From the NCBI GenBank assembly GCA_964474755.1, contig CAYYUG010000003.1:7580-71579 (forward strand): a stretch of DNA of 64,000 bases, read 5' to 3'. Below the pieces are notes generated by a model that worked only from the letters and a program-made list of their open reading frames with translations, made no database searches and was not told where the DNA came from. Positions 23,829-36,720 of the stretch are shown in pieces (position 1 is the stretch's first letter; each line of letters opens with the position of its first letter). The translations under genes and the position numbers were made by a program. This stretch comes from an uncultured Rhodospirillaceae bacterium (GTDB lineage Bacteria > Pseudomonadota > Alphaproteobacteria > UBA8366 > GCA-2717185).

Positions 23829-24731
23829 TTAACGGTTTACCGAAGAGGGGTTGAAACCGGTGGCGCGCTCGTCGCGGCCGGTCGGTGCCAGTTCGCTCGC
23901 TAAATTGCCGGCGATGCGGGTTGCTTGGAGAACACGCGCCTCTTTGAAATCATAGGGCCGAGCACGGTGCAGGACGCATCGATTATCCCAGACCAGCAAA
24001 TCGCCGACGGTCCAGTGATGGGTATATACGCGCGGCGCTTTTGCGGCTTGGTCGAGAAGATCATCAAGGAGTGCCTGCGCGTCCTCGTCTTCCATGCCTG
24101 GAATTCGATAGGTGTGACGACCGATGCATAGACATTTTCGGCCGGTGACGGGGTGCACCTTGATTAGCGGACGCAGCGGTGCGCCTTTATCATGGTACCC
24201 GTAGGCTGACCCGGTTTCGAACTTGTAGCCGATCTTCGCCTGCGATGCGTAAAGTGAGTGATAGGCCGAGAGACCCTCGATTCGCGACTGAGTGACTTTG
24301 TCCAGCGCGTCGTAGCCAGCTCGCATATCGGCCAGCTCGGTCTCGCCGCCTTCCGGTGGTACCACAAGAGCAGAAAGCAGTCCGGCTTTGGCCGCTATTG
24401 GCATATAAGTACTGTCAAGGTGCCAGCCTTCATTGCCTCGCAGCGATTTGAAGCGTTGCTCGTCCGGTTTCATGATCGAGCCGTCCTGATTTCGGTTGGA
24501 GATCTGAACGCCTTCTTTGCCTTCGCGCAAAATTTCTAGGTCTCCAAACCGTTTTCCGAATGCGACTTGCTCTGCGTCACTCAGGTGCTGCCCTGGGAAT
24601 ACCAACGCAGCGTGCGTTAGAAATGCCTCTTCAACGATGCGCCAAGTCGGCTCATCCAAATTTGCAAGATCAACATCGGTTATGACAGCGCCTAGGCTAA
24701 GACCTTCAATCGGCGTAACAGTGGGAGCCAT
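23829..24731 (-). CDS. TauD/TfdA-family Fe(II)/2OG dioxygenase
   Basis: 300-aa ORF. GAVITDVDL..., WHLDSTY (HxD), and WTVGDLLVWDNRCVLHRA are typical of PF02668. Confidence 0.85.
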   Translation of the reverse strand: MAPTVTPIEGLSLGAVITDVDLANLDEPTWRIVEEAFLTHAALVFPGQHLSDAEQVAFGKRFGDLEILREGKEGVQISNRNQDGSIMKPDEQRFKSLRGNEGWHLDSTYMPIAAKAGLLSALVVPPEGGETELADMRAGYDALDKVTQSRIEGLSAYHSLYASQAKIGYKFETGSAYGYHDKGAPLRPLIKVHPVTGRKCLCIGRHTYRIPGMEDEDAQALLDDLLDQAAKAPRVYTHHWTVGDLLVWDNRCVLHRARPYDFKEARVLQATRIAGNLASELAPTGRDERATGFNPSSVNR

Positions 24732-25103: not shown

Positions 25104-25577
25104 CTAGAGCGGTATCACGAGGAGTGTGTCGATTCCACGGCTGTCGAAGACGACTAGCCTTTCCGAGAATTTGAGCGCATTGTCGTTCTCGACGATGCGG
25201 TCATAGTAACAGCCGGTGCTAAAGATCATTGCCGAACCATCGCGCATGATCCGGGTTACCTGGTAATTTGTTTCTGCCAGCATCGTATCGCCTTCCACAG
25301 CTTTGATAAGCGTGGTCGATAGGATGTGCCGGTAGCGGTGATCCTCATATATATTCGCTTCACGAAGAGCCATAATGCGGTCGCGCAGCATGTCGCGAGA
25401 ATCGCAATCGATTACGCCAAGCGGCAGATCTAACTCGAAATTCTCGGCTGAGATAATTTTGTAGACGCAACTTTTGGTGAAATACTCCGGCCATTCCTCG
25501 AAACGACCGCTATCGAGACTGTCCGCGCAGCGCGCCAGTAGATCTTGAACCCGAAGCTGCCGTTTTATGTCCACCAA
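25104..25577 (-). CDS. aromatic-ring-hydroxylating dioxygenase beta subunit (NTF2-like)
   Basis: 157-aa ORF immediately downstream of the alpha subunit. FEEWPEYFTKSCVYKI...DRIMALRE...YEDHRYRHIL is typical of PF00866. Confidence 0.8.
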   Translation of the reverse strand: MVDIKRQLRVQDLLARCADSLDSGRFEEWPEYFTKSCVYKIISAENFELDLPLGVIDCDSRDMLRDRIMALREANIYEDHRYRHILSTTLIKAVEGDTMLAETNYQVTRIMRDGSAMIFSTGCYYDRIVENDNALKFSERLVVFDSRGIDTLLVIPL

Positions 25578-25579
25578 AT

Positions 25580-26827
25580 TTAGAGCCCCATGTGGCTGCG
25601 ATAGGCTGCCCAGAAACCGCGCACCGAAGCTTCGGTGGTTCGCGTGTTGTCGCTAATATGATCGCGACCACCCATTTCGATGATAGAGCTTTCTTCGAGG
25701 GCGCCTGGAATACCGCGTTGCACGAAATTTCCGACTGCTCCATCCTCCATAGATATGTAGCCGGCAGGGCCGATCAAGTTCGCCTGTTTGAGACGCATTT
25801 TGGTAGTTATTTCATCATCGTCTTCGAAGCCTAGTACGGTCCAGTTTAGCTCGGTACGATTAACACCCTTGGGCAGTATCTGCCGAACAGCGATGCTATT
25901 TTCGACTTGCTGCAGAATAAAATTTGGGAAGACTGAAAGGATTTGAATATTGATACCGTCGCCGAATTCATCAAAGGATTCTAGCAGGGAAGGGTCGGCG
26001 AGCTGGTAGTCGTCGCGGCTGGCGCGCAATTTGGACTCGTCATATTCGGCATTCGCGTGGATAGTTCGGCGCTTCGAATAGCTCGCATGATTGCCGCCGG
26101 TTGGATCGACTAGAACACCGCCTTCCGAGGAAAGGCGGTTTATTCGAAACGTTGCGAAGAAAAGGTGAAGTAAGCCGGCATGGTAAGAATCCTTCACGTT
26201 CTCGACATACAGTTTCCAATTATTATTAAGTATTTGAGTGTGATATCCTAAAATTCTAAGAGGACGGTTAAGCACGCGATCGATCCTTTGCAGGATATCG
26301 GGACCTATAAATTCTTCTAGCGACGGTGTGTTGTCGGAAAAGGTTCCGAATACAAGGCCGCAGCGTTTGCCGGTACGCAACGGTCGCATCCGATGGTCTT
26401 TTACGTTGAAGTCATCCGGCATTCCACCGCGGCCCTTAACACCTTTGGCGAAAGCCGCGCTAATCAGTTCGCCTTTTAATCCATAGATCCAGTTGTGGTA
26501 GACGCAGGTCAGTGTTTTGGCATTGCCTCTATCTTTTAGGCACACCATCGCTCCCTTATGTACGCAGCGGTTCTCGAAGGCATTTATGTCGCCATTTTCG
26601 TCGCGTATGACGATTATTGGGGTTTCGCCAACGTATGTGGTTTTGTAGTCGCCGGAGTTTGGAATTTCGTTGGCCAGGCAAAGTAGTTGCCAGGTTTCAC
26701 CCTGAAAGATCTGTTTCTGCTCGGCAGCGTAGATGTCCCTATCGACGAATGTACGGTAGGGTACCCGACTGTTGCCGGCTTCTGGCCATTTCAAGAGTTG
26801 CGGATCGTTGGTCAGGACGTCAGTCAT
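25580..26827 (-). CDS. aromatic-ring-hydroxylating dioxygenase alpha subunit (Rieske)
   Basis: 415-aa ORF with the Rieske motif CVHKGAMV...CVYHNWIY and a catalytic domain containing DSYHAGLLH. Confidence 0.85.
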   Translation of the reverse strand: MTDVLTNDPQLLKWPEAGNSRVPYRTFVDRDIYAAEQKQIFQGETWQLLCLANEIPNSGDYKTTYVGETPIIVIRDENGDINAFENRCVHKGAMVCLKDRGNAKTLTCVYHNWIYGLKGELISAAFAKGVKGRGGMPDDFNVKDHRMRPLRTGKRCGLVFGTFSDNTPSLEEFIGPDILQRIDRVLNRPLRILGYHTQILNNNWKLYVENVKDSYHAGLLHLFFATFRINRLSSEGGVLVDPTGGNHASYSKRRTIHANAEYDESKLRASRDDYQLADPSLLESFDEFGDGINIQILSVFPNFILQQVENSIAVRQILPKGVNRTELNWTVLGFEDDDEITTKMRLKQANLIGPAGYISMEDGAVGNFVQRGIPGALEESSIIEMGGRDHISDNTRTTEASVRGFWAAYRSHMGL

Positions 26828-26917
26828 GGCGATACTTTCGAAGCAGGCTATCTGGAAGAGAGTAACGAAATCCTGGGCGAACGGATAATTAATGAGCAGC
26901 CGCTGCGAGCGATACTG

Positions 26918-27958
26918 TTAGACAAAAGTGAGCAAGCGCCGTGGCGTGTCGACGATGATTGCTTGTATTTCCGTTTCCGTGAAATCGCGCAGCCGCATCA
27001 ACGGTATCGCATTCTCAAATATATGGCCATAACCGTGGCCACCATATGATCTGAGACGGGTCAAAAAACAGATGTCGTGACTAATCACAATTTGGTCAAG
27101 ATGTCCTCGCTCTATGAGAGCCCGGATTAGTCGCAGGCGGATCGCATCGTTTGGCATGTCAATCTGCGGGTTAAGTGGGTAGTAGCTTGTTTCCTGTCCG
27201 AATAGGTCAAATTCGATGATGCATCCCGTATCGGCGAGCCTAAATAGCCGGTCAAAGTCGAAAATGGTGCGTTCAATATGGCTAATGACCGTGCGTTCTG
27301 GTGCACCGTCATGAGCCACGATGAATTCCATGATTTCCTGCGGCTGTTCCTCATGGCGCCCAGGATGAACGTTCAGTGAAGCGCCCGTTTCCTGCTGCGC
27401 AATGATGGCACCCGCCATGACGCGTTTTTCCAAATTAGTCCACGGAGATTGGCACCCGATCTCGCCGATCATGCCCGCCCGAATATTGGTGTCCCAAGCG
27501 CCTTCGAGGATCTGCCCTACTATCTCGGTGGCAAAACTATCAACGTCTCGGCTGTGGTTAGCTTCATCCTGATATTCGTCAACATAATGTCCGCACCCCA
27601 TCACCACATGGGCGCCGGAATCTCGTGAAATTTGCGCCAGTGCGTCAGGTGCGGGGGCAAGACCACCGGAGCTCAGCTCGACAATGGTATTGCCGCCGGC
27701 GGCGACCATCTCTTTGACCTCGAAAGTCGCCAGTTCAGCCGAACGCGAGATGAAGTTGCGCGGCACCTTCACTCGTCCGTAGTTGAATTGCCAGCAATTG
27801 CAGAGATTGATCTCTGGGCCTTGATCCAGGTCTGCCGCCATCTTCGGTGTTCGGATATCCCAGACGAGATGCTCATGCATCAGAGTATTGCCAAGTTCTG
27901 TTGGGTCGATAGGCCCTAAAACGGTTTGAGCTTTACCTTTCAGCTCGGACATCGTCAT
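26918..27958 (-). CDS. phosphotriesterase-related (PTE/PHP) amidohydrolase-superfamily protein
   Basis: 346-aa ORF. TVLGPIDPTELGNTLMHEHL is typical of the PF02126 N-terminus. Confidence 0.75.
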   Translation of the reverse strand: MTMSELKGKAQTVLGPIDPTELGNTLMHEHLVWDIRTPKMAADLDQGPEINLCNCWQFNYGRVKVPRNFISRSAELATFEVKEMVAAGGNTIVELSSGGLAPAPDALAQISRDSGAHVVMGCGHYVDEYQDEANHSRDVDSFATEIVGQILEGAWDTNIRAGMIGEIGCQSPWTNLEKRVMAGAIIAQQETGASLNVHPGRHEEQPQEIMEFIVAHDGAPERTVISHIERTIFDFDRLFRLADTGCIIEFDLFGQETSYYPLNPQIDMPNDAIRLRLIRALIERGHLDQIVISHDICFLTRLRSYGGHGYGHIFENAIPLMRLRDFTETEIQAIIVDTPRRLLTFV

Positions 27959-28356: not shown

Positions 28357-28869
28357 CTAGGCCGTTTCCGGGTTGGGGGCTTCCAGAAGGCCTCTGGCCT
28401 CCATCATGGGATAAATGCCGCCAGCTTTCATGACTTCAAGGACCATATCGGGGAAGCGTGTGCCCTGCAGGACCTTGCCAGTCCGTTTGTTGCGCACGGT
28501 GAATTGACCGAACTCCACTTCAATTTCATCGCCTTCCTCAATAAATTTGGAAATGCCGGGACATTCCAATGCGAAGACCCCGTAATTGGCGCAGTTGCGG
28601 AAGAATAGCCCGTTGATCGACTCCGCGATGATGCAGGTCACGCCTAATTCCTTTAGCGACCGCGCCGCCGGTCGGCCGGAGCCGGTGCCGAAATTTTGAC
28701 CGCCGACGATGACGTCTCCCTGCTGCACCTCGTCTACCCAGCCGGGCCGATTGGCCTCGAAGGCGTGCTTGGGTTGTTCATCGAAGGGCAGCAGCATAAC
28801 AGGACCGGGAAGGATCAGGTCCGTGTTGATATGATCGCCGAATTTCCAGGTTTTACCTTGGATACGCAT
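28357..28869 (-). CDS. aconitase-family small subunit (LeuD-like swivel domain)
   Basis: 170-aa ORF. MRIQGKTWKFGDHINTDLILPG and GQNFGTGSGR are typical of short (archaeal-type) LeuD/HacB subunits. Confidence 0.8.
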   Translation of the reverse strand: MRIQGKTWKFGDHINTDLILPGPVMLLPFDEQPKHAFEANRPGWVDEVQQGDVIVGGQNFGTGSGRPAARSLKELGVTCIIAESINGLFFRNCANYGVFALECPGISKFIEEGDEIEVEFGQFTVRNKRTGKVLQGTRFPDMVLEVMKAGGIYPMMEARGLLEAPNPETA

Positions 28870-28880
28870 AGAGTGATTCC

Positions 28881-30134
28881 CTACAAAAATTCGCGCGGGT
28901 CGGTAAGCGTGCCTCGAACTGCGGACGCCGCGACTGTTGCTGGTGAGGCGAGATAGATATCAGCCTCCGGACTGCCCATTCGGCCTTTAAAGTTGCGTGT
29001 TGATGCAGTGACACATTTTTCGCCCGGTGCCAGGATCCCGTTGCTGTATCCGCAGCAGGCGCCGCAGGTTGAATTCGTTACCACCGCCCCAGCCTCCATC
29101 AGCGTCTGAACGTAACCACGGCGCATCGCCTCAAGGAAAATAAGCTGCGAACCAGGGGTTACTATTAATCGAGTGCCTTTGGCGATCTTTTGGCCCTTAA
29201 CCACCTTTGCCGCAATCTCGAAATCGTCCAGAGTGCCGTTGGCGCAGGAGCCTATGAAAGCTTGGTCTAGGTGATGTTGGTCGGCGTCTTTTACGGGTCG
29301 AGCATTCTCGACAACCGTTCCTGGATAAGCGACGAGGGGTTCAAGGGCGTTGAGATCGATCGTTCGTTTGGATGCGTAGCTGGCGTCAGGGTCAGCGAAT
29401 TGCGGCACGAATTCCGCATCTGGATTGCGCGATCGTACATGCTCAATGCATTTGTCGTCGGCCTCGAATACGGCGAACTCGGCACTTATCTCCGCGCACA
29501 TGGTCGCCAAGGTGCGGCGCGCATTCATGCTCATGCCGTTTACGCCGTTACCAACAAACTCGACATTATGCATTGCGTGTTCTCCATAGGTGTTACCGAT
29601 ATGGAGAATGATGTCTTTGCCATTCAGCACAGGCGGCAATTCGCCGGTCAGCGTATAGCGAATAGTCTCACACACAGGGAACCAGGTCTGACCCGTCGCG
29701 CAGACATAACTCATCTCGGGGTGGCCTATACCGCGCGCAGCGCAGTTGAAGGCGCCGGCACTGCAGGTGTGTGAGTCAACGCAAGCGAGCAAGGTGCCGG
29801 GCAAGGCGTAGCCGAAATCGGCCACCAGCTGGTGGCAAATTCCGAGACCGTTATTGACGTCATGGAAGCGGGTGATGCCATGTTTTTCAGCAAAACGCCG
29901 TGCGGCTTTGTGCATGCTGGCGCGCATCGGACTATCCGCCGGCGCGATATGGTCAAGCATGATGACGATCTTGTCGGGATCGAACACTTTCTTGGGCTCC
30001 CGCATTCGGTTGTGCATAAAGTTTTGATCGATTACCACGACGGTGCCGACATCCACCGTCACGATATCCCCTGGTGTTACCGTGTCTTGGCCCGCAGCCC
30101 GTGCCAGGATTTTCTCCACCATAGTCAGGCCCAT
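28881..30134 (-). CDS. aconitase-family large subunit (LeuC/HacA-like dehydratase)
   Basis: ORF 28881..30167, with the likely start at MGLTMVEKILARA (ATG 30134; alternatives are 30167, 30143 and 30122). The cluster-ligand contexts DSHTCSAG, IGSCANG and STCGACCG are present. Confidence 0.8.
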   Translation of the reverse strand: MGLTMVEKILARAAGQDTVTPGDIVTVDVGTVVVIDQNFMHNRMREPKKVFDPDKIVIMLDHIAPADSPMRASMHKAARRFAEKHGITRFHDVNNGLGICHQLVADFGYALPGTLLACVDSHTCSAGAFNCAARGIGHPEMSYVCATGQTWFPVCETIRYTLTGELPPVLNGKDIILHIGNTYGEHAMHNVEFVGNGVNGMSMNARRTLATMCAEISAEFAVFEADDKCIEHVRSRNPDAEFVPQFADPDASYASKRTIDLNALEPLVAYPGTVVENARPVKDADQHHLDQAFIGSCANGTLDDFEIAAKVVKGQKIAKGTRLIVTPGSQLIFLEAMRRGYVQTLMEAGAVVTNSTCGACCGYSNGILAPGEKCVTASTRNFKGRMGSPEADIYLASPATVAASAVRGTLTDPREFL

Positions 30135-30227
30135 CGCCCTCATCCTTCTATCGTTCAGGATTTCCAAATTGTTTGCCGCGTGCCACCATTATCCGGAGAC
30201 ATATGCCGTTGTGGCCCGAAGGATGAA

Positions 30228-31094
30228 ATGATGAAACATACGACAAAACTCCGCAATCTGATTGAAGGAGAGGACATCCTGTTATGTCCCGGGACCTACG
30301 ACCCATTGATGGCGAAGTTGATTAAACAGCTTGGCTTTGAGGCTTTGTACATGACAGGCGCCGGCATATCTCACTCGACCTTGGCAATGCCGGACCTTGG
30401 TTTGACGACGATGACGGAAATGGTACATCGCGCGACCCTGTTGGCGGATGCCTCAGAACTGCCGCTGATCTGCGATGCGGATACGGGTTATGGCAATGCA
30501 CTCAATGTCATGCGAACAGTGCGGGAATACGAGCGTGCTGGTGTCGCCGGTATTCATATTGAAGACCAGGAGATGCCGAAGCGATGTGGCCATTTTTTCG
30601 GCAAATCGCTGATTAATAAAGAGGAGATGGTTGGCAAACTTAAGGCGGCGCTCGATGCCCGAAAGGACGAAGATTTTATGATTATTGCCCGCACCGATGC
30701 GCGGACCGCAGTAGGTTTTGAAGAGGCGTTGGACCGGGCTCACGCCTATGCGGAAGCGGGGGCCGATGTCATTTTTTTCGAGAGCCCTCGGTCGATTGAG
30801 GAGTTAACGGAAGTGCCCAAGGCAATCGGCAAGCCGGTGCTGGCGAACATGGTTGAGACGGGACTGACGCCCTTACTATCTGCACAGGAGTTGCAGGAAA
30901 TTGGTTACGGTGTTGTGATTTTTGCGGGCGGCCTCGCGAGGTTTTTAGCCCGTCAGGCGCAGGGTTTTTTGCAGAACTTAAAAGATACCGGAACAACGGA
31001 AGCCTACATGGACCGTATGAATAGCTTCCAGGAACATAACGAATTGCTAGAACTGCCGAAGTTCGATGAACTAGCCAAGAAGTATGGATTATAA
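30228..31094 (+). CDS. isocitrate lyase / PEP mutase superfamily protein (PrpB / methylisocitrate-lyase-like)
   Basis: ORF 29832..31094 trimmed to ATGATG at 30228 (GAAGGA upstream). CDADTGYGN and IEDQEMPKRCGH are signature segments of the ICL/PEPM family. The upstream part of the ORF is antisense to the leuC-like gene. Confidence 0.8.
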   Translation: MMKHTTKLRNLIEGEDILLCPGTYDPLMAKLIKQLGFEALYMTGAGISHSTLAMPDLGLTTMTEMVHRATLLADASELPLICDADTGYGNALNVMRTVREYERAGVAGIHIEDQEMPKRCGHFFGKSLINKEEMVGKLKAALDARKDEDFMIIARTDARTAVGFEEALDRAHAYAEAGADVIFFESPRSIEELTEVPKAIGKPVLANMVETGLTPLLSAQELQEIGYGVVIFAGGLARFLARQAQGFLQNLKDTGTTEAYMDRMNSFQEHNELLELPKFDELAKKYGL

Positions 31095-31103
31095 AAACGG
31101 AGA

Positions 31104-31904
31104 ATGCCGGCGATGGACTACCAGCATATTAAAGTCGAACGTGGCGGTGAGATCGCCGTTGTAACCTTCAACCGACCAGAGCGGGCCAATGCGTTGAACG
31201 CGCGCCACATCCAGGAGATAGAGCACGCTTCGCTTAGTTTTCGAGAGGACGCAATGACGCGTGTCGTTGTCTTCACCGGCGCCGGCAAGCATTTTACCTC
31301 CGGCGCGGATCTTAGCGAGCGTCAGCCCGGCGAGAACCCCGAAACCCTGATGCTCCGGCGTCAACGGCGTCGGGCGGGTCAGCACTGCATCCAATCGATC
31401 CTCGATATGGATCAGATTACAATAGGGGCGTGGACGGGCGCGGCGATGGGCGGCGGCGCATGTATAGCTGCGGCGATGGATTTCCGTATCGGAGCCAAGG
31501 ACTGTTTCATGTCTTTTCCAGAAATCCTCATCGGTGTTCCACTGATGTGGCAGTCTCTGCCGCTTTGTGTGCGGCTCATGGGTGCGTCGCGGGCCAAGCG
31601 TATGGTAATCAGCGGCGAGCACGTCCGTGGGCCGACCCTGCTCGATTGGGGTGTGCTCGACGATATGGTTTCAACCGATCAGGTTGAAACACGTGCGATG
31701 GAGTGGGCGGAACGATACGCTGCGCAGGCGCCTGTCGCAGCGCAGATGATCAAACGCAGCGTTAACGCTATTTCTACTGCGCTAGATCGATCAATTATGC
31801 ACATGGATTTCGACCAGCATCTGTTAGCGAGTTCCATGGATGATACCGTGGAGGCAATAGCTTCATATAGGGAGAAGCGCAGAGGTACCTTTTCGGGCAA
31901 TTAG
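31104..31904 (+). CDS. enoyl-CoA hydratase/isomerase (crotonase) family protein
   Basis: 266-aa ORF. IAVVTFNRPERANAL...VVVFTGAGKHFTSGADL is the crotonase pattern. Confidence 0.85.
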   Translation: MPAMDYQHIKVERGGEIAVVTFNRPERANALNARHIQEIEHASLSFREDAMTRVVVFTGAGKHFTSGADLSERQPGENPETLMLRRQRRRAGQHCIQSILDMDQITIGAWTGAAMGGGACIAAAMDFRIGAKDCFMSFPEILIGVPLMWQSLPLCVRLMGASRAKRMVISGEHVRGPTLLDWGVLDDMVSTDQVETRAMEWAERYAAQAPVAAQMIKRSVNAISTALDRSIMHMDFDQHLLASSMDDTVEAIASYREKRRGTFSGN

Positions 31905-31918
31905 CAGGAGTATGTGCC

Positions 31919-32749
31919 ATGCAGGTCACGCAAATTGCGAACGGTTTCGCGGCTCGTATCACTGGGATTGATCTATCGCAGCATCTCGATGACGACCTGT
32001 TCGCGGAAATCAGGTCACTGTGGATGGAGCATCGAATTGTGCTGTTTCCCGACCAAACGCTGGACGACGAAAGTCTTGTAGCCTTTGCGGGGCGGTTCGG
32101 CCGTCTTTTTGTTCATGCACAGACTTCGCTGCTGTCGAAAAAACGCAAGGAGGTCATGGAACTCTCGAATTTGCCTGAGGCAGAACGCAAGACCACTCAC
32201 GAACTTGACTGGCATACTGACCAGACGTACACGCCGGAGCCGGTCTTCGGGACCATGTTATACGGACTGGTTGCTCCGACTGAGGGCGGCGAAACTTTGA
32301 TCGCGGATCTCGCTGGCGCCTATGCGAGCCTGCCGGACGCGCTGCGTAGCCGTGTAGAGGGTGTCCCCGCAGTCTACTCGGCGGAGCCACGGCCAAAGGT
32401 GCGCGAGACACCGCTCGATGTGGATGAAAAGAAACGCATTCCGGATTGTACGCACCCGCTGGTCCGAAGGCATCCTTATCTGGACCGCAAGGCACTTTAT
32501 CTTAGCCCTTTACACATGAAGACGATAGGCGACCTCTCGGAAGAAGATAGCCTCGAATTGATCCGCGAGCTGACGTCCCACGCTACGCAGCCGGCGCATG
32601 TCTACTGCCACACCTGGACCGTGGGTGATCTTATCATGTGGGACAATACCTCGGTGATGCATCGCCGTACGCCATTCCCGCCGGACGAGCCGCGCCACCT
32701 TAAGCGCGCGGGGTTCTACTTACCCAAGGACCTTGCGGTTCCGTTCTAG
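31919..32749 (+). CDS. TauD/TfdA-family Fe(II)/2OG dioxygenase
   Basis: 276-aa ORF with WHTDQTY (HxD) and WTVGDLIMWDNTSVMHRR. Confidence 0.85.
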   Translation: MQVTQIANGFAARITGIDLSQHLDDDLFAEIRSLWMEHRIVLFPDQTLDDESLVAFAGRFGRLFVHAQTSLLSKKRKEVMELSNLPEAERKTTHELDWHTDQTYTPEPVFGTMLYGLVAPTEGGETLIADLAGAYASLPDALRSRVEGVPAVYSAEPRPKVRETPLDVDEKKRIPDCTHPLVRRHPYLDRKALYLSPLHMKTIGDLSEEDSLELIRELTSHATQPAHVYCHTWTVGDLIMWDNTSVMHRRTPFPPDEPRHLKRAGFYLPKDLAVPF

Positions 32750-33525
32750 GCTGCGATGTAATCACGAACAGCCAAATACAGCGTAACGATTCCGATTCCT
32801 GCAAGGGCCAGTAAGGCAGCATTGCGAAAATGGCGCTGGCCCTTTCCGCCGAAGAACCGGGCTCCAATCCAGATTGCGAGGGAATAGAGCGGTGCAATCA
32901 TCAGCGCGAGGAGTAAGGATTCTCTCGTAAAAAGGCCCAGATACCAGAAGGGAAACATAGCACAGAGGTTGAGAGATGTTACCGCACCGATCACATTAGC
33001 GCGTTGCTGAACCGTTGAGCCTGGTTGCGATAGTGCTAGGATCACTGCAAGTGGGCCGCTTACGCTTGCTGCACCCTGTATCAATCCAGCCGATGCCCCG
33101 GCGCCCGTCAGCATCGCCTTGCTAGGGCGTCGGGTCAGTTGCCAGCCGCAAACTAAAACCAAAAACATTATTAGTACGAAAACCGAAATTGCCATACGCA
33201 TGATTGAGGGATCGAGTGATAACAGCACCATGACACCGAACGGTGCGATGGCAAAACTGGCCAATCCAAAGGGAAGGACAAATCCACGTTCGCTGTCTCG
33301 TACGGCAGTGGGGAGTAGTTGGATTGTGGCCGGCAGACCGGACAGGTTTGCGGCTGGGACGGCCACGATCGGGCCGAAGACGGCGCTCAAAACCATGACA
33401 ATGATCAGGGCGGCGCCGAAACCGACGAAGCCACGGATGAAGCCGGCCAACAGAACCGCCGCGGCGACAATGGCCAGGCCGGCATAGGAGACCGGTCCGA
33501 TGTAGACCTGGATAGTTTCAAGCAT
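32746..33525 (-). CDS. TauE/SafE (TSUP) family membrane protein, sulfite-exporter homolog
   Basis: ORF 32746..33543 (TTG start) with ATG 33525 more likely. It is very hydrophobic, and LAGFIRGFVGFGAALI is the typical first-helix motif of PF01925. Its stop overlaps the stop of the convergent TauD gene within CTAG. Confidence 0.75.
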   Translation of the reverse strand: MLETIQVYIGPVSYAGLAIVAAAVLLAGFIRGFVGFGAALIIVMVLSAVFGPIVAVPAANLSGLPATIQLLPTAVRDSERGFVLPFGLASFAIAPFGVMVLLSLDPSIMRMAISVFVLIMFLVLVCGWQLTRRPSKAMLTGAGASAGLIQGAASVSGPLAVILALSQPGSTVQQRANVIGAVTSLNLCAMFPFWYLGLFTRESLLLALMIAPLYSLAIWIGARFFGGKGQRHFRNAALLALAGIGIVTLYLAVRDYIAA

Positions 33526-33624
33526 GCCCGCTATTCCCGGCAAAGTATGCCGAAAGGGAGTGTGTTTCCCGGCAGTGGTGCCGTGACAATGATACTATCG
33601 GAACAGAACGCGTTCTGAAAACGG

Positions 33625-34476
33625 CTAGACCGGCCGTTCACCGGCAGCGGTCGTGCGGTGGAGGAAGCGCGGTTGGTTTTCGTCATAATCGCGCACCGCG
33701 TAATGCATGTTGGCGCGGTTGTCCCACATCAGCACGTCGCCAACCCGCCATTTGTGCCGGTAAATGTTCTCGTGCCGGGTCGCCTGGGCGTAGAGAAATT
33801 CCAGGATCGGCTTGCTCTCCTCGCGCGTCATACCGATGAAGTGAGAGGTGTAGTAGGGGTTGACGTAGAGCGCCTTGCGGCCGCTGCCAGGATGGGTACG
33901 GACGACTGGGTGGATGACGCCGGGCGGCACCTCGGTGACCTGCACACGTGAGGGGACTTCGGTCACCAGTGTCTCCGCATTGTGCTCCGCCTGCAGCCCG
34001 TCAAGGAACTTGCGCAACGGTTCTGAGAGTTCCTCATAGGCCGAGTACATATTGCAAAACATCGTATCGGCCAGACCTTCGGTGACCTCAATGGCGTACA
34101 GCATAGAAAGGGCCGGAGGGACTTCGCCGAAAGAAATGTCGGAGTGCCAAAAATCATTGCGCGGGCCAAGCTTGCCGGGCCGGTTCTCCAGCACCATCAC
34201 TTCCGGCTGATCCTCAAGACCGCGGCGCGAGCCGAGCGGGTGTTCTTCAGTGGGGCCGAAGCGGTGCGTGAAGGCTACTTGATGGCCGGGTTCGATCTTC
34301 TGATTGCGGAAGACCAGCACGAGATTGTCGTGAAATGCCTGCTCGATTTCAGTAAAGGTCTCGTCGTCTAGCGGCTGTGATAGGTCGACGTCGGTCACTT
34401 CTGCACCGAGCGCGTTGCAGAGTGGGATTAGTCTGATGCGCTTGTGGTTTCGTTCTTTAGTGGCGAGGGCCGTCAT
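33625..34476 (-). CDS. TauD/TfdA-family Fe(II)/2OG dioxygenase
   Basis: ORF 33625..34617 trimmed to ATG 34476 (MTALATKERN...), which removes the overlap with the upstream gene. It has WHSDISF (HxD) and WRVGDVLMWDNRANMHYA. Confidence 0.85.
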   Translation of the reverse strand: MTALATKERNHKRIRLIPLCNALGAEVTDVDLSQPLDDETFTEIEQAFHDNLVLVFRNQKIEPGHQVAFTHRFGPTEEHPLGSRRGLEDQPEVMVLENRPGKLGPRNDFWHSDISFGEVPPALSMLYAIEVTEGLADTMFCNMYSAYEELSEPLRKFLDGLQAEHNAETLVTEVPSRVQVTEVPPGVIHPVVRTHPGSGRKALYVNPYYTSHFIGMTREESKPILEFLYAQATRHENIYRHKWRVGDVLMWDNRANMHYAVRDYDENQPRFLHRTTAAGERPV

Positions 34477-34490
34477 TGTAAAACTCCGAT

Positions 34491-35357
34491 CTAGTAGGGA
34501 CGTTCGCCAGTTATCGTCGTGCGGTGCAGCAGACGACGCTGCGGCAGGGCGTAGTCGCAGATCGCCAAATGCTGGGTTAGCGTGTTGTCCCACATTACTA
34601 CGTCGCCAACCCGCCACTCATGCCGATAGGTGAAGTCCGGCTTCTTGGTGTGATCCCACAACTCCTGCAGCAGAGTTTCGCTTTCGTCCGCCGGTAGCCC
34701 CACGATATGCGTCGTGTGGCCCTCATTGACGAGGAGGCCGCGGCGTCCAGTTTCGGGATGGGTGCGGACCACGGGGTGTGTCACCGTCGGTGTTTTTGCG
34801 TGTTGTTCGTCCGACATTTCGATGTGTTTGGTACCGTCATCGGCCAGCTTCTGAAAGCGTTTGGCGAGGCTGTACTGCGCCTTAAGCGTGTCGATGCGAT
34901 CGCGTGTCTCGGCCGGTAACGCTTCGTAGGCCGCTGCCGTACTGGCCCAAATTGTGTTGCCGAGTGACGTTCCATTTTCCTGGGGTATTTCCATCGCATA
35001 TAGAATCGAACCGCGGCTTGGCACGTCCAGGTAGGACAGGTCCGTGTGCCAGTAGCGACCCGCATCCGGAATGCCGATATTTTTACCGTTTTCGAGAACG
35101 TTGGAGACAATAAGAATTTCCGGATGCTCTTTGTGTAAATACTGTTCCAAAACATGTGTTTCTAAATCGCCGAAATACCGGCTGTAGCGTAGGAACTGAT
35201 CCGGTGTCACTTTTTGGTCGCGAAACACCAGAACGGAATGACGGCTCCACGCCCTGCGGAGTGTGTTTTGTTCATCGGCCTCTAACGGCTTTGCCAAATC
35301 AACATCCAAGACTTCGGCGCCGATCACGCCGTCGAACGGCTTCACGTGTAGGGGCAT
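34491..35357 (-). CDS. TauD/TfdA-family Fe(II)/2OG dioxygenase (tandem paralog)
   Basis: ORF 34491..35537 trimmed to ATG 35357 (MPLHVKPFDGVIGAEV...). It has WHTDLSY (HxD) and WRVGDVVMWDNTLTQHLA. It is collinear with, and clearly similar to, 33625..34476. Confidence 0.85.
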   Translation of the reverse strand: MPLHVKPFDGVIGAEVLDVDLAKPLEADEQNTLRRAWSRHSVLVFRDQKVTPDQFLRYSRYFGDLETHVLEQYLHKEHPEILIVSNVLENGKNIGIPDAGRYWHTDLSYLDVPSRGSILYAMEIPQENGTSLGNTIWASTAAAYEALPAETRDRIDTLKAQYSLAKRFQKLADDGTKHIEMSDEQHAKTPTVTHPVVRTHPETGRRGLLVNEGHTTHIVGLPADESETLLQELWDHTKKPDFTYRHEWRVGDVVMWDNTLTQHLAICDYALPQRRLLHRTTITGERPY

Positions 35358-35361
35358 GATG

Positions 35362-36720
35362 TCAACTCCTGTCGAGAATTCCGGTAAGGCTATCACGATC
35401 TTCCAGTTGGCCGAGTGAGGCTGCCAGTGCGTCGGCTTCGGCGGTGCTGCGCGGCTGCATGCCAAACTGCGCGCAATCGCGAAACTTAGCGGCGACCTGA
35501 TCGTCTGACAACGGGTTCGCAATGGTGCCCGGTACATTTTCTAGATCGGCCTCTAACTTGGCACCGCTGGAGGTCTTCACTGTCACGCGCGCTGGGGCGA
35601 ACTTTCCGCTGTTAGCGTCATCGATACTGATATCCACTTTCTGGATGAACTCGGCAATCGCGGTATCGTTGACCGCGGCGTCCTGGATCTCAGCGATGCC
35701 GAGACGGCGGCGGAGCAGGGCGCTGGCGGCGGAGTAGTGAATGCTGAACTGGGCTGCTACCTGTGGATTATCCGATGGATCAAAGGCGTCACCGACCAGA
35801 CCGTTTGCAAAAGGTGAAAGCTCAATCTCGACGCGGTCAATTTGGTCGGGTGTCAGATCGTTGGCCTCCGCCACTTCAATCAAGAGGTCGATTGGGACAT
35901 GGTTTGCCGTGCAGCTCGGATATTTTTTGATGGCAGTTGCCAACGACTCGTAATGCGTACCGAGATCCTCGATCAAAGTTCCGACGTCGCCCTCACCATA
36001 GAGCGTGTGAAAACCGAACTTTCCCTCGACGGCTTGGCTCGGTCCGTTGATTCCAGCTGCCGCAAGCTGTGCTGAAAAGACACCCGCCTCTGCTGCGAAT
36101 CCAGATTGCGCTCGCTTGGCGAGGCTCTTCTCAAGCAAGGCCTGCTGTGTGCCACCGGCTCGACTCAGTGCTAGGCCAATCGCGTTCGCAATGCCCGCCT
36201 CGTCGAGGCCAAGCAGCTTACCCACCGCCGCGGCGGCGCCGAAGACGCCAAATACTGATGTATAAAACCAGCCTTTGTTGTGCAGATTGGCGGCACCGAA
36301 GCGGCAAGCGACTTCGTTGCCCAGCGCGACAGCGGCGAGGAAGGCCTTACCGTCGGCGTGGATTTGCTCGGCGATCGCCCAGGCGGCCGGGACGGTAACG
36401 ATATCGGGATGGACGGAACCGCGCTCGTACACCGAGTCGTAGTCCAGGGCAGCAGCGTGCAAGCCGTTGACGAAGGCCGCGCCACGGCTACTGACGCGTT
36501 CGCCGCTGGCCCACAATGTGCTGGTGCCAGTTGCACCTTCCGCCAGGATCGTCTCACGGGCCCCCTCGCAACCCGGTGCATCTGATCCTGCTAAGGCCAC
36601 GCCAACGGTGTCGAGGATCCGTTGTTTGGTAGCGGTTATAACCTCTGCTGGTAGCGCGCCGTAATCAGTGCTCGCCACGAAAACGGCGAGCGACTCGGTC
36701 GCGCTTGGTGAATCCGACAT
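35362..36720 (-). CDS. MmgE/PrpD-family protein (2-methylcitrate-dehydratase-like)
   Basis: ORF 35362..36765 trimmed to ATG 36720 (GAGGAG upstream). FVASTDYGALPAEVITATKQRILDTVGVALAG is a typical PF03972 N-terminus. Confidence 0.8.
   Translation of the reverse strand: MSDSPSATESLAVFVASTDYGALPAEVITATKQRILDTVGVALAGSDAPGCEGARETILAEGATGTSTLWASGERVSSRGAAFVNGLHAAALDYDSVYERGSVHPDIVTVPAAWAIAEQIHADGKAFLAAVALGNEVACRFGAANLHNKGWFYTSVFGVFGAAAAVGKLLGLDEAGIANAIGLALSRAGGTQQALLEKSLAKRAQSGFAAEAGVFSAQLAAAGINGPSQAVEGKFGFHTLYGEGDVGTLIEDLGTHYESLATAIKKYPSCTANHVPIDLLIEVAEANDLTPDQIDRVEIELSPFANGLVGDAFDPSDNPQVAAQFSIHYSAASALLRRRLGIAEIQDAAVNDTAIAEFIQKVDISIDDANSGKFAPARVTVKTSSGAKLEADLENVPGTIANPLSDDQVAAKFRDCAQFGMQPRSTAEADALAASLGQLEDRDSLTGILDRS

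Follow-up and report, generated by a model that had tools for sequence, protein, structure and literature searches.

We analyzed a 64,000-nucleotide stretch of DNA (the window) from a 4.3-Mb, 92%-complete metagenome-assembled genome (MAG; G000) of an uncultured marine alphaproteobacterium, whose relatives are labeled Rhodospirillaceae or Alphaproteobacteria, and focused on the nine genes at positions 28357 to 36720. These genes are probably a mosaic of small catabolic units and not one pathway. Two units likely form its core: module 1, in which a LeuCD-type hydratase is joined to a PrpB-like lyase, and module 2, in which a PrpD-like protein is joined to two TauD-family dioxygenases, TauD3 and TauD2. 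The hydratase and the lyase of module 1 are paired in many relatives, and the module 2 cassette is conserved. The preliminary description of this DNA had proposed dehydration, rehydration, and lyase cleavage as a single route interleaved with TauD, crotonase, and TauE genes, and the synteny test splits that route into separate units. Its inventory held, since the list of open reading frames (ORFs) and Pfam place all nine genes, intact, in the families and positions given below. The nine genes are organized into three tight transcription units.

Module 1 comprises a LeuD-like small subunit (170 amino acids; 28357..28869, minus strand; Pfam Aconitase_C), a LeuC-like large subunit (417 amino acids in the family-typical form; 28881..30134, minus strand, in an ORF reaching 30167; Pfam Aconitase, 275 bits), and a PrpB-like C-C lyase of the isocitrate lyase (ICL)/PEP mutase superfamily (288 amino acids; 30228..31094, plus strand; Pfam PEP_mutase, 164.6 bits). 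LeuC and LeuD form one unit with an 11-bp gap, and this unit diverges from that of the lyase across 93 bp (30135..30227), a presumed shared control region; the same divergence is seen in all alphaproteobacterial relatives. A search with LeuC returned 12 loci at 75 to 93% identity in 12 species, including Comamonadaceae. LeuD adjoins LeuC in every relative, and the lyase, at 84 to 95% identity, divergently adjoins LeuC-LeuD in all eight of the alphaproteobacterial loci that show both flanks. At greater distance (LeuC identity, 54 to 79%), LeuCD and a PEP_mutase-family lyase lie next to or close to each other in 8 of 11 independent contexts, which span Alphaproteobacteria, Betaproteobacteria, Rokubacteria, and unclassified MAGs. 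A PrpD-family gene occurs within 10 kb in only one of these 11 contexts, and a TauD gene in none of the 11 outside the TauD-rich lineage. The clade is patchy, being present in 6 of 400 evenly sampled alphaproteobacterial genomes. Comamonadaceae and Rhodoferax (L017 and L019; 10001-14740) carry LeuCD proteins 78 to 79% identical to those of the window, suggesting horizontal transfer, in the order LeuC-LeuD-TctC-lyase-TctC; the partner lyase there is nonorthologous (46 to 47% identity and not sister in the tree) and is flanked by the two TctC/Bug receptors.

The neighbors of module 1 are often carboxylate transporters (TctABC/TctC, DASS, MFS, or ABC with SBP_bac_5) or CoA-activating enzymes. This usual position beside carboxylate transporters makes the catabolism of a substituted dicarboxylate a reasonable role. 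The preliminary description had read the whole locus as the breakdown of a substituted acid; that reading survives for LeuCD and the lyase, a conserved unit beside transporters, and fails as a single route with PrpD, TauD, crotonase, and TauE. In two further loci (L123 and L124; 7000-17000; LeuC identity, 58 to 59%), the order lyase-LeuC-LeuD is found next to genes for UbiD, a molybdenum hydroxylase large subunit, a crotonase, and a cupin, with an Amidohydro_2 enzyme in addition in L123. This context hints at a link with the breakdown of N-heterocycles or aromatic acids, as in the nicotinate pathway.

The Cys ligands, the Ser/Arg motif, and the subfamily scores place LeuC and LeuD together in the archaeal-type LeuCD/HacAB/DmdAB aconitase family. 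When scored against NCBIfam, LeuC passes the subfamily models NF001614 (447; cutoff, 385), TIGR01343 (424; cutoff, 386), and TIGR02086, and falls under the biosynthetic equivalogs (LEU2, 373 versus 611; HacA_Meth, 344 versus 550). LeuD passes TIGR02087, the LeuD/DmdB family (130.7 bits; cutoff, 108.95), and falls under every equivalog cutoff (leud, 116 versus 246). LeuC has the 4Fe-4S ligands Cys297, Cys357, and Cys360 as well as the DSH motif, and the GSGR motif is invariant in LeuD. The loop after INTDLILPG in LeuD is hydrophobic (PVMLLPF), and we take this small-subunit loop to be the one that decides substrate choice in the homoaconitase and isopropylmalate isomerase enzymes of methanogens. 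The nearest solved large subunits are those of the Methanocaldococcus jannaschii isopropylmalate/citramalate isomerase (4KP1; E = 7e-101) and homoaconitase (1e-82; 4NQY and 4KP2 being the other structures of this set), which share the size class (~417 plus 170 amino acids) and the Fe-S ligands. The M. jannaschii enzymes are biosynthetic, whereas the window pair scores below their equivalog cutoffs and is linked to a lyase and transporters; the biosynthetic Escherichia coli-type LeuCD of the host is encoded elsewhere (contigs C11 and C45).

The lyase has the Cys loop and the Asp/Glu Mg ligands of ICL/PEP mutase-superfamily C-C lyases. The KRCGH motif named in the preliminary description is there, along with D58, D85, D87, E115, R158, E188, and N210 (E. 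coli PrpB numbering). T212 and R270 of E. coli PrpB, which are presumably contacts of the distal carboxylate, are replaced by V and F, respectively. These replacements and the hydrophobic LeuD loop would argue against a distal carboxylate. Among solved structures, those of methylisocitrate lyase, petal death protein, and "CPEP mutase" are equally close to the lyase (E of about 1e-61), with dimethylmalate lyase (3FA3) at 6e-55. Against the prpB equivalog TIGR02317 it scores 320.6 (cutoff, 354.4); none of the 13 paralogs in the host genome passes, and the window lyase is the best of them. The lyase on contig C12, which adjoins the housekeeping AcnA, also fails the cutoff.

From the families and these presumed residue roles, module 1 probably acts on a dicarboxylate that bears a hydrophobic substituent and not on a tricarboxylate. 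The LeuCD-type Fe-S enzyme would hydrate an alkyl-substituted maleate or shift the hydroxyl group of an alkylmalate, and the Mg- and Cys-dependent lyase would split the resulting 2-hydroxy-dicarboxylate into a pyruvate-like 2-oxoacid and a carboxylic acid. The closest parallel is the nicotinate fermentation of Eubacterium barkeri, reportedly described by Alhapel and colleagues in 2006, in which the dimethylmaleate hydratase DmdAB is said to be followed by the 2,3-dimethylmalate lyase Dml. Both systems pair a two-subunit LeuCD-type hydratase with a lyase of the ICL/PEP mutase superfamily, and in the known one a substituted maleate yields a 2-oxoacid and a carboxylate. The likeness is at the family level. 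Other genes of the nicotinate pathway are missing here, and the host is an aerobic marine alphaproteobacterium. By this analogy, module 1 most likely acts on an alkyl-substituted maleate or malate, as DmdAB and Dml do. Two other papers use "dimethylmalate lyase" simply as an annotation label for PrpB.

Module 2 lies on the minus strand and starts with a MmgE/PrpD-family protein (452 amino acids; 35362..36720, in an ORF reaching 36765; Pfam MmgE_PrpD_N and MmgE_PrpD_C, with PF03972 at 207.9 bits and PF19305 at 94.5 bits versus cutoffs of 32.1). It is followed by TauD3 (288 amino acids; 34491..35357; Pfam TauD, 234 bits) and TauD2 (283 amino acids; 33625..34476; Pfam TauD, 225 bits), whose ORFs extend to 35537 and 34617, with the real starts at 35357 and at about 34476 (the latter by the length in relatives). 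The unit ends with a TauE gene, the successive gaps being 4, 14, and ~80 bp. Orthologs of the PrpD-like protein (50 to 77% identity) are always accompanied by two TauD genes. In genus g1, the identities are 75 to 77% for the PrpD-like protein, 84 to 86% for TauD2, and 64 to 70% for TauD3. Genus g15, of another family, shows 50%, 64 to 65%, and 52 to 54%, respectively, in the order TauD2-TauD3-PrpD with a divergent LysR gene. The trio is also found in XB_MAG149 (PrpD-like, 67%), in a Burkholderiales MAG (56%, with LysR), and on a 2.9-Mb contig between gatCAB/ruvX and pyrB/pyrC (53%). Neither LeuCD nor the lyase lies beside the trio in genus g15, XB_MAG149, the Burkholderiales MAG, or the 2.9-Mb contig. 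A class-wide search with the PrpD-like protein, for which four candidates were scored per genome, gave a count of at least 1 in 400 genomes. Our literature search found no description of either the LeuCD-lyase or the PrpD-like/TauD/TauD module.

The nearest solved structure to the PrpD-like protein is the iminodisuccinate (IDS) epimerase of Agrobacterium tumefaciens (2HP0, with 2HP3; E = 9e-46 over ~410 residues for 2HP0), followed by bacterial IRG1 and cis-aconitate decarboxylase (CAD); E. coli PrpD is absent from its PDB matches at 1e-5. In the tree, E. coli PrpD is the outgroup to all 16 PrpD-family paralogs of the host, and the protein scores 47.3 against the PrpD equivalog (cutoff, 950), which no PrpD-family protein of the host passes. 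Placement, which the preliminary description had left to be checked, thus brings the protein nearer to IDS epimerase and then to IRG1/CAD, and outside the 2-methylcitrate dehydratase clade. The window clade reads GWF(Y/N)T and KR(A/M)(Q/L)SG, so that the histidines are lost at both motifs, also in the orthologs L013 and L106. IDS epimerase has GWH and KPMHTG, and these histidines are kept in CAD and in the paralogs of contig C5 and Rokubacteria described below. The window protein also differs from IDS epimerase (GWF for GWH and KRAQSG for KPMHTG) in having two TauD proteins as partners, with no C-N lyase gene seen nearby.

TauD3 has E. coli TauD as its nearest solved structure (1GQW; E = 8e-59). 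The Fe ligands H99, D101, and H255 and the 2-oxoglutarate (2OG) contacts T126 and R266 (E. coli TauD numbering) are invariant in TauD0 to TauD3, and TauD1 to TauD3 keep H70 and R270 as well. However, positions 73/95/158, Y/N/S in E. coli TauD, are E/G/R in TauD3, G/N/L in TauD2 (where N95 is thus kept), and T/E/R in TauD1; we take Y73, N95, and S158 to be the taurine amine-binding positions (structures 1GQW and 1OS7). The taurine dioxygenase equivalog NF007104 (cutoff, 313) gives 256 for TauD3 and 225 and 130 for the other two, and there is no tauABC transporter, with the three proteins standing among ~120 paralogs. Going by these families, the two different 2OG oxygenases of module 2 would act on an anionic, non-taurine substrate, and the IDS epimerase-like MmgE/PrpD protein would epimerize, dehydrate, or decarboxylate a succinate-type product or precursor.

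The two modules are distributed separately. On the complete chromosome OZ245851.1 (5,690,826 bp), module 1 is at 2.25 Mb and module 2 at 0.19 Mb, ~2 Mb apart, and in XB_MAG149 they are on separate contigs. Of the eight genomes of the genus, both modules occur in three, module 1 alone in one, module 2 alone in two, and neither in two. The host and genome G056 share 89% identity in the lyase and 85% in LeuC but only 50% in the PrpD-like protein, indicating that the histories of these genes differ. Among the loci of the LeuC search, PrpD-like, TauD, and TauE neighbors were found in only two genomes, both of the same genus. Close relatives also show a turnover of single genes: G006 has an aminotransferase gene in place of LeuCD-lyase, G001 carries an inserted EamA gene, and the insertions in G007 are GGT, TauD, and LVIVD genes.

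Several observations weigh against separate modules or against the chemistry that we propose for them. The modules are adjacent in three genomes of the genus (the host, G001, and G007). The stretch at 28357-36720 encodes neither a transporter nor a regulator. No member of either clade has been characterized, and the chemistry given above is drawn from families and presumed residue roles. In a placement test on the host genome, 5 of the 13 lyase genes lie within 2 kb of a TauD gene (expected, 1.6; P = 0.015). A second cluster of the host (contig C5:52864-62792) encodes a DASS symporter for Na+/carboxylate or sulfate, Usp, GST, two tandem lyases, LeuC' and LeuD' (which share 40% identity with the window pair), a 2OG dioxygenase of the PhyH type, and, convergently, an MmgE/PrpD protein; the PrpD-family, LeuCD-like, lyase, and PhyH genes fall within C5:56.8-62.8 kb. 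A third and distant recurrence of the family combination, in Rokubacteria (L121; JACPCW010000088.1, 1260-17299), is a large cluster that has on one strand TctB, TctA, TctC, a LeuC-like gene in fragments, a lyase gene, LeuC-LeuD, genes for an SBP_bac_5 ABC importer, MmgE/PrpD, two more lyase genes, and a further LeuC-like gene. The recurrences on C5 and in Rokubacteria suggest that some functional link may exist between PrpD-family proteins and LeuCD-lyase, and they are a hint, with weak statistics, that oxygenases, PrpD-family enzymes, and hydratase-lyase pairs recur together in a looser association.

A tentative extension of the modular reading, which we consider doubtful though worth stating, takes PrpD-like/TauD/TauD as a self-contained system of three enzymes and has 2OG or flavin oxygenases of this TauD-rich lineage systematically team up with ICL-like lyases and LeuCD-like hydratases to "hydroxylate, then retro-aldol cleave" branched carboxylic acids in the dissolved organic matter of the sea. 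If this is true, the clusters of the window, C5, and Rokubacteria would be variations on one undescribed theme.

The same observations could be taken to favor a single route of all nine genes, in which a substituted or sulfonated di- or tricarboxylate is hydroxylated by TauD proteins, dehydrated by the PrpD-like protein, rehydrated by LeuCD, and cleaved by the lyase, with TauE exporting sulfite. We regard such a route as unlikely. The adjacency in three genomes, the return of the family combination, and the lyase-TauD enrichment speak for it, but complete or large assemblies place the modules apart, and each module has a phyletic pattern of its own. The PrpD-like proteins of C5 and Rokubacteria belong to other subfamilies, with GxH and KxxHxG, and are not sister to the window clade, which is tied specifically to TauD genes and not to LeuCD. 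Nor do TauD genes accompany module 1 outside the TauD-rich lineage. In the placement test, a distance of 7 kb or less between a PrpD-family gene and a lyase gene was observed twice (expected, 0.58; P = 0.11), so that finding the three "methylcitrate-like" families together is not significant by the genome's own statistics, and the closeness of PrpD to the lyase is compatible with chance at the family abundance seen in the host.

Desulfurization by module 2 is an equally improbable alternative: through TauD2 and TauD3, a carboxylated sulfonate would lose its sulfur as sulfite or sulfate, TauE would export the sulfite, and the PrpD-like protein would process the carbon skeleton. An organosulfonate or sulfate ester as the substrate would agree with the closeness of TauD3 to a genuine taurine dioxygenase and its anion-binding H70 and R270, with the TauE gene after the cassette in the genus, and with a sulfatase and a molybdopterin oxidoreductase encoded next door in the host and G001. 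However, the equivalents of H70 and R270 could bind carboxylates, as they may in other family members; the scores stay under the taurine dioxygenase cutoff, and other residues stand at the amine-binding positions; and the molybdoenzyme matches no specific sulfite dehydrogenase model. The sulfonate idea of the preliminary description depends only on TauE, which is linked to the cassette only within the genus and is missing from it in genus g15 and in L131-L133.

It is more doubtful still that the juxtaposition is meaningless at every level, with unrelated single enzymes side by side in a paralog-rich genome. The very high density of these families and the frequent insertion and replacement of single genes in G001, G006, and G007 would fit. 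But the pair and the trio are each kept across families, orders, and even phyla, with spacings of 4 to 19 bp, which contradicts this explanation for the two modules; it may hold for the crotonase, TauD1, and TauE.

A methylcitrate cycle is not detectable in the host, in which only one citrate synthase is full length and neither a PrpB nor a PrpD exceeds the equivalog cutoffs. No citrate synthase-family gene lies in the window, and the 92%-complete genome has, apart from the full-length gene, two short fragment-type matches; the preliminary description had correctly noted that 28357-36720 contains neither a citrate synthase-like gene nor an acyl-CoA synthetase gene. The 2-methylcitrate cycle (PrpC, PrpD, AcnB or AcnD/PrpF, and PrpB; prpBCDE in E. 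coli) draws on the same three superfamilies, and its PrpB shares KRCGH and the Mg ligands with the lyase. The stretch differs in having no PrpC, a PrpD-like protein outside the PrpD clade, a lyase below the cutoff with V/F at 212/270, and a short archaeal-type LeuCD instead of AcnB or AcnD, and in that the three genes are not a conserved unit. A variant of this cycle that handles propionate, in which the lyase would serve as PrpB and the PrpD-like protein would be the 2-methylcitrate dehydratase, is therefore largely refuted by the missing second, PrpC-type citrate synthase, the equivalog scores, the PrpD tree, and the changed lyase residues, even though the family names fit and the lyase is the best match of the host to the prpB model (320 bits).

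The modular reading leaves three genes of the stretch as lineage-specific neighbors in a genome with frequent gene insertion and swapping. The crotonase-fold protein (266 amino acids; 31104..31904, plus strand; Pfam ECH_1, 150 bits) and TauD1 (276 amino acids; 31919..32749, plus strand; Pfam TauD, 212 bits), an Fe(II)/2OG dioxygenase family member, follow the lyase in one unit with gaps of 9 and 14 bp. The crotonase gene, a genus-level add-on, is beside the lyase only in genomes of the same genus and persists in G006, which lacks LeuCD and the lyase. It passes no NCBIfam equivalog. Its sequence reads GGGAC...FPE where hydratases presumably have GGGCE (as in the rat enoyl-CoA hydratase), so that one of the two catalytic Glu residues seems to be replaced, and it may be of the isomerase, decarboxylase, or hydrolase type. 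An ortholog of TauD1 was found only in G001, where the EamA exporter gene is inserted between TauD1 and the crotonase gene. The TauE/SafE (TSUP) membrane protein (32746..33543, minus strand; Pfam TauE, 66 bits; no NCBIfam match) is a genus-level add-on to module 2; its gene follows the cassette in G001, in G006, and, beyond the three inserted genes, in G007. A scan of the stretch for promoter and terminator consensus sequences was uninformative, giving fewer matches than shuffled sequence.

In paralog-rich marine heterotrophs such as this one, small independent modules that are neighbors can produce a suggestive mix of families. The two modules isolated here are compact, conserved, and uncharacterized units that should be easy to test at the bench. 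The ~120 TauD paralogs are a striking resource for new 2OG oxygenase substrates in marine carbon and sulfur turnover, and our literature search found no paper on this TauD/TfdA-family expansion.

The host genome has 121 TauD matches over the Pfam cutoff (118 loci by tblastn), 16 to 17 MmgE/PrpD, 13 PEP_mutase-family, and 8 aconitase-family genes. TauD genes, of which ~0.23 would be expected per 8.4 kb under random placement, are often in tandem arrays; with so high a count, TauD neighbors are to be expected in this genome. The window has seven TauD matches versus ~1.8 expected at the genome's mean density, at 23829-24731, 31919-35357 (three), ~53321, ~59846, and ~60806. Some TauD copies of the genome are recent tandem arrays (C21, C35, C61, and C7), and others are pairs of old paralogs. 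PrpB-like lyase paralogs lie directly beside TauD and luciferase-like monooxygenase genes at C34:25189-27181, C85:10395-14446 (in the one-strand order TauD-lyase-TauD-monooxygenase), and C4:113513-116843. A FastTree analysis of 113 TauD paralogs hinted that the nearest paralogs of TauD2 and TauD3 are beside lyase paralogs; this was dropped, as the BLAST ranking disagreed, all TauD paralogs being ~40% identical. A whole-cluster duplication between C3 and C5 was likewise rejected, since their PrpD-family and lyase members are not sisters in the trees. A search with the C5 LeuC' returned mostly biosynthetic archaeal-type LeuC (38 to 53% identity) and one 92% ortholog on a short contig.

Following LeuD after a gap of 398 bp, genes for a phosphotriesterase-family (PTE) hydrolase and the alpha and beta subunits of an AndAc-like Rieske dioxygenase occupy 25104-27958. 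The PTE gene adjoins LeuD in G005, too, and G006 keeps the PTE and Rieske alpha genes although the aminotransferase gene stands in place of LeuCD-lyase there. These genes are probably a third independent module.

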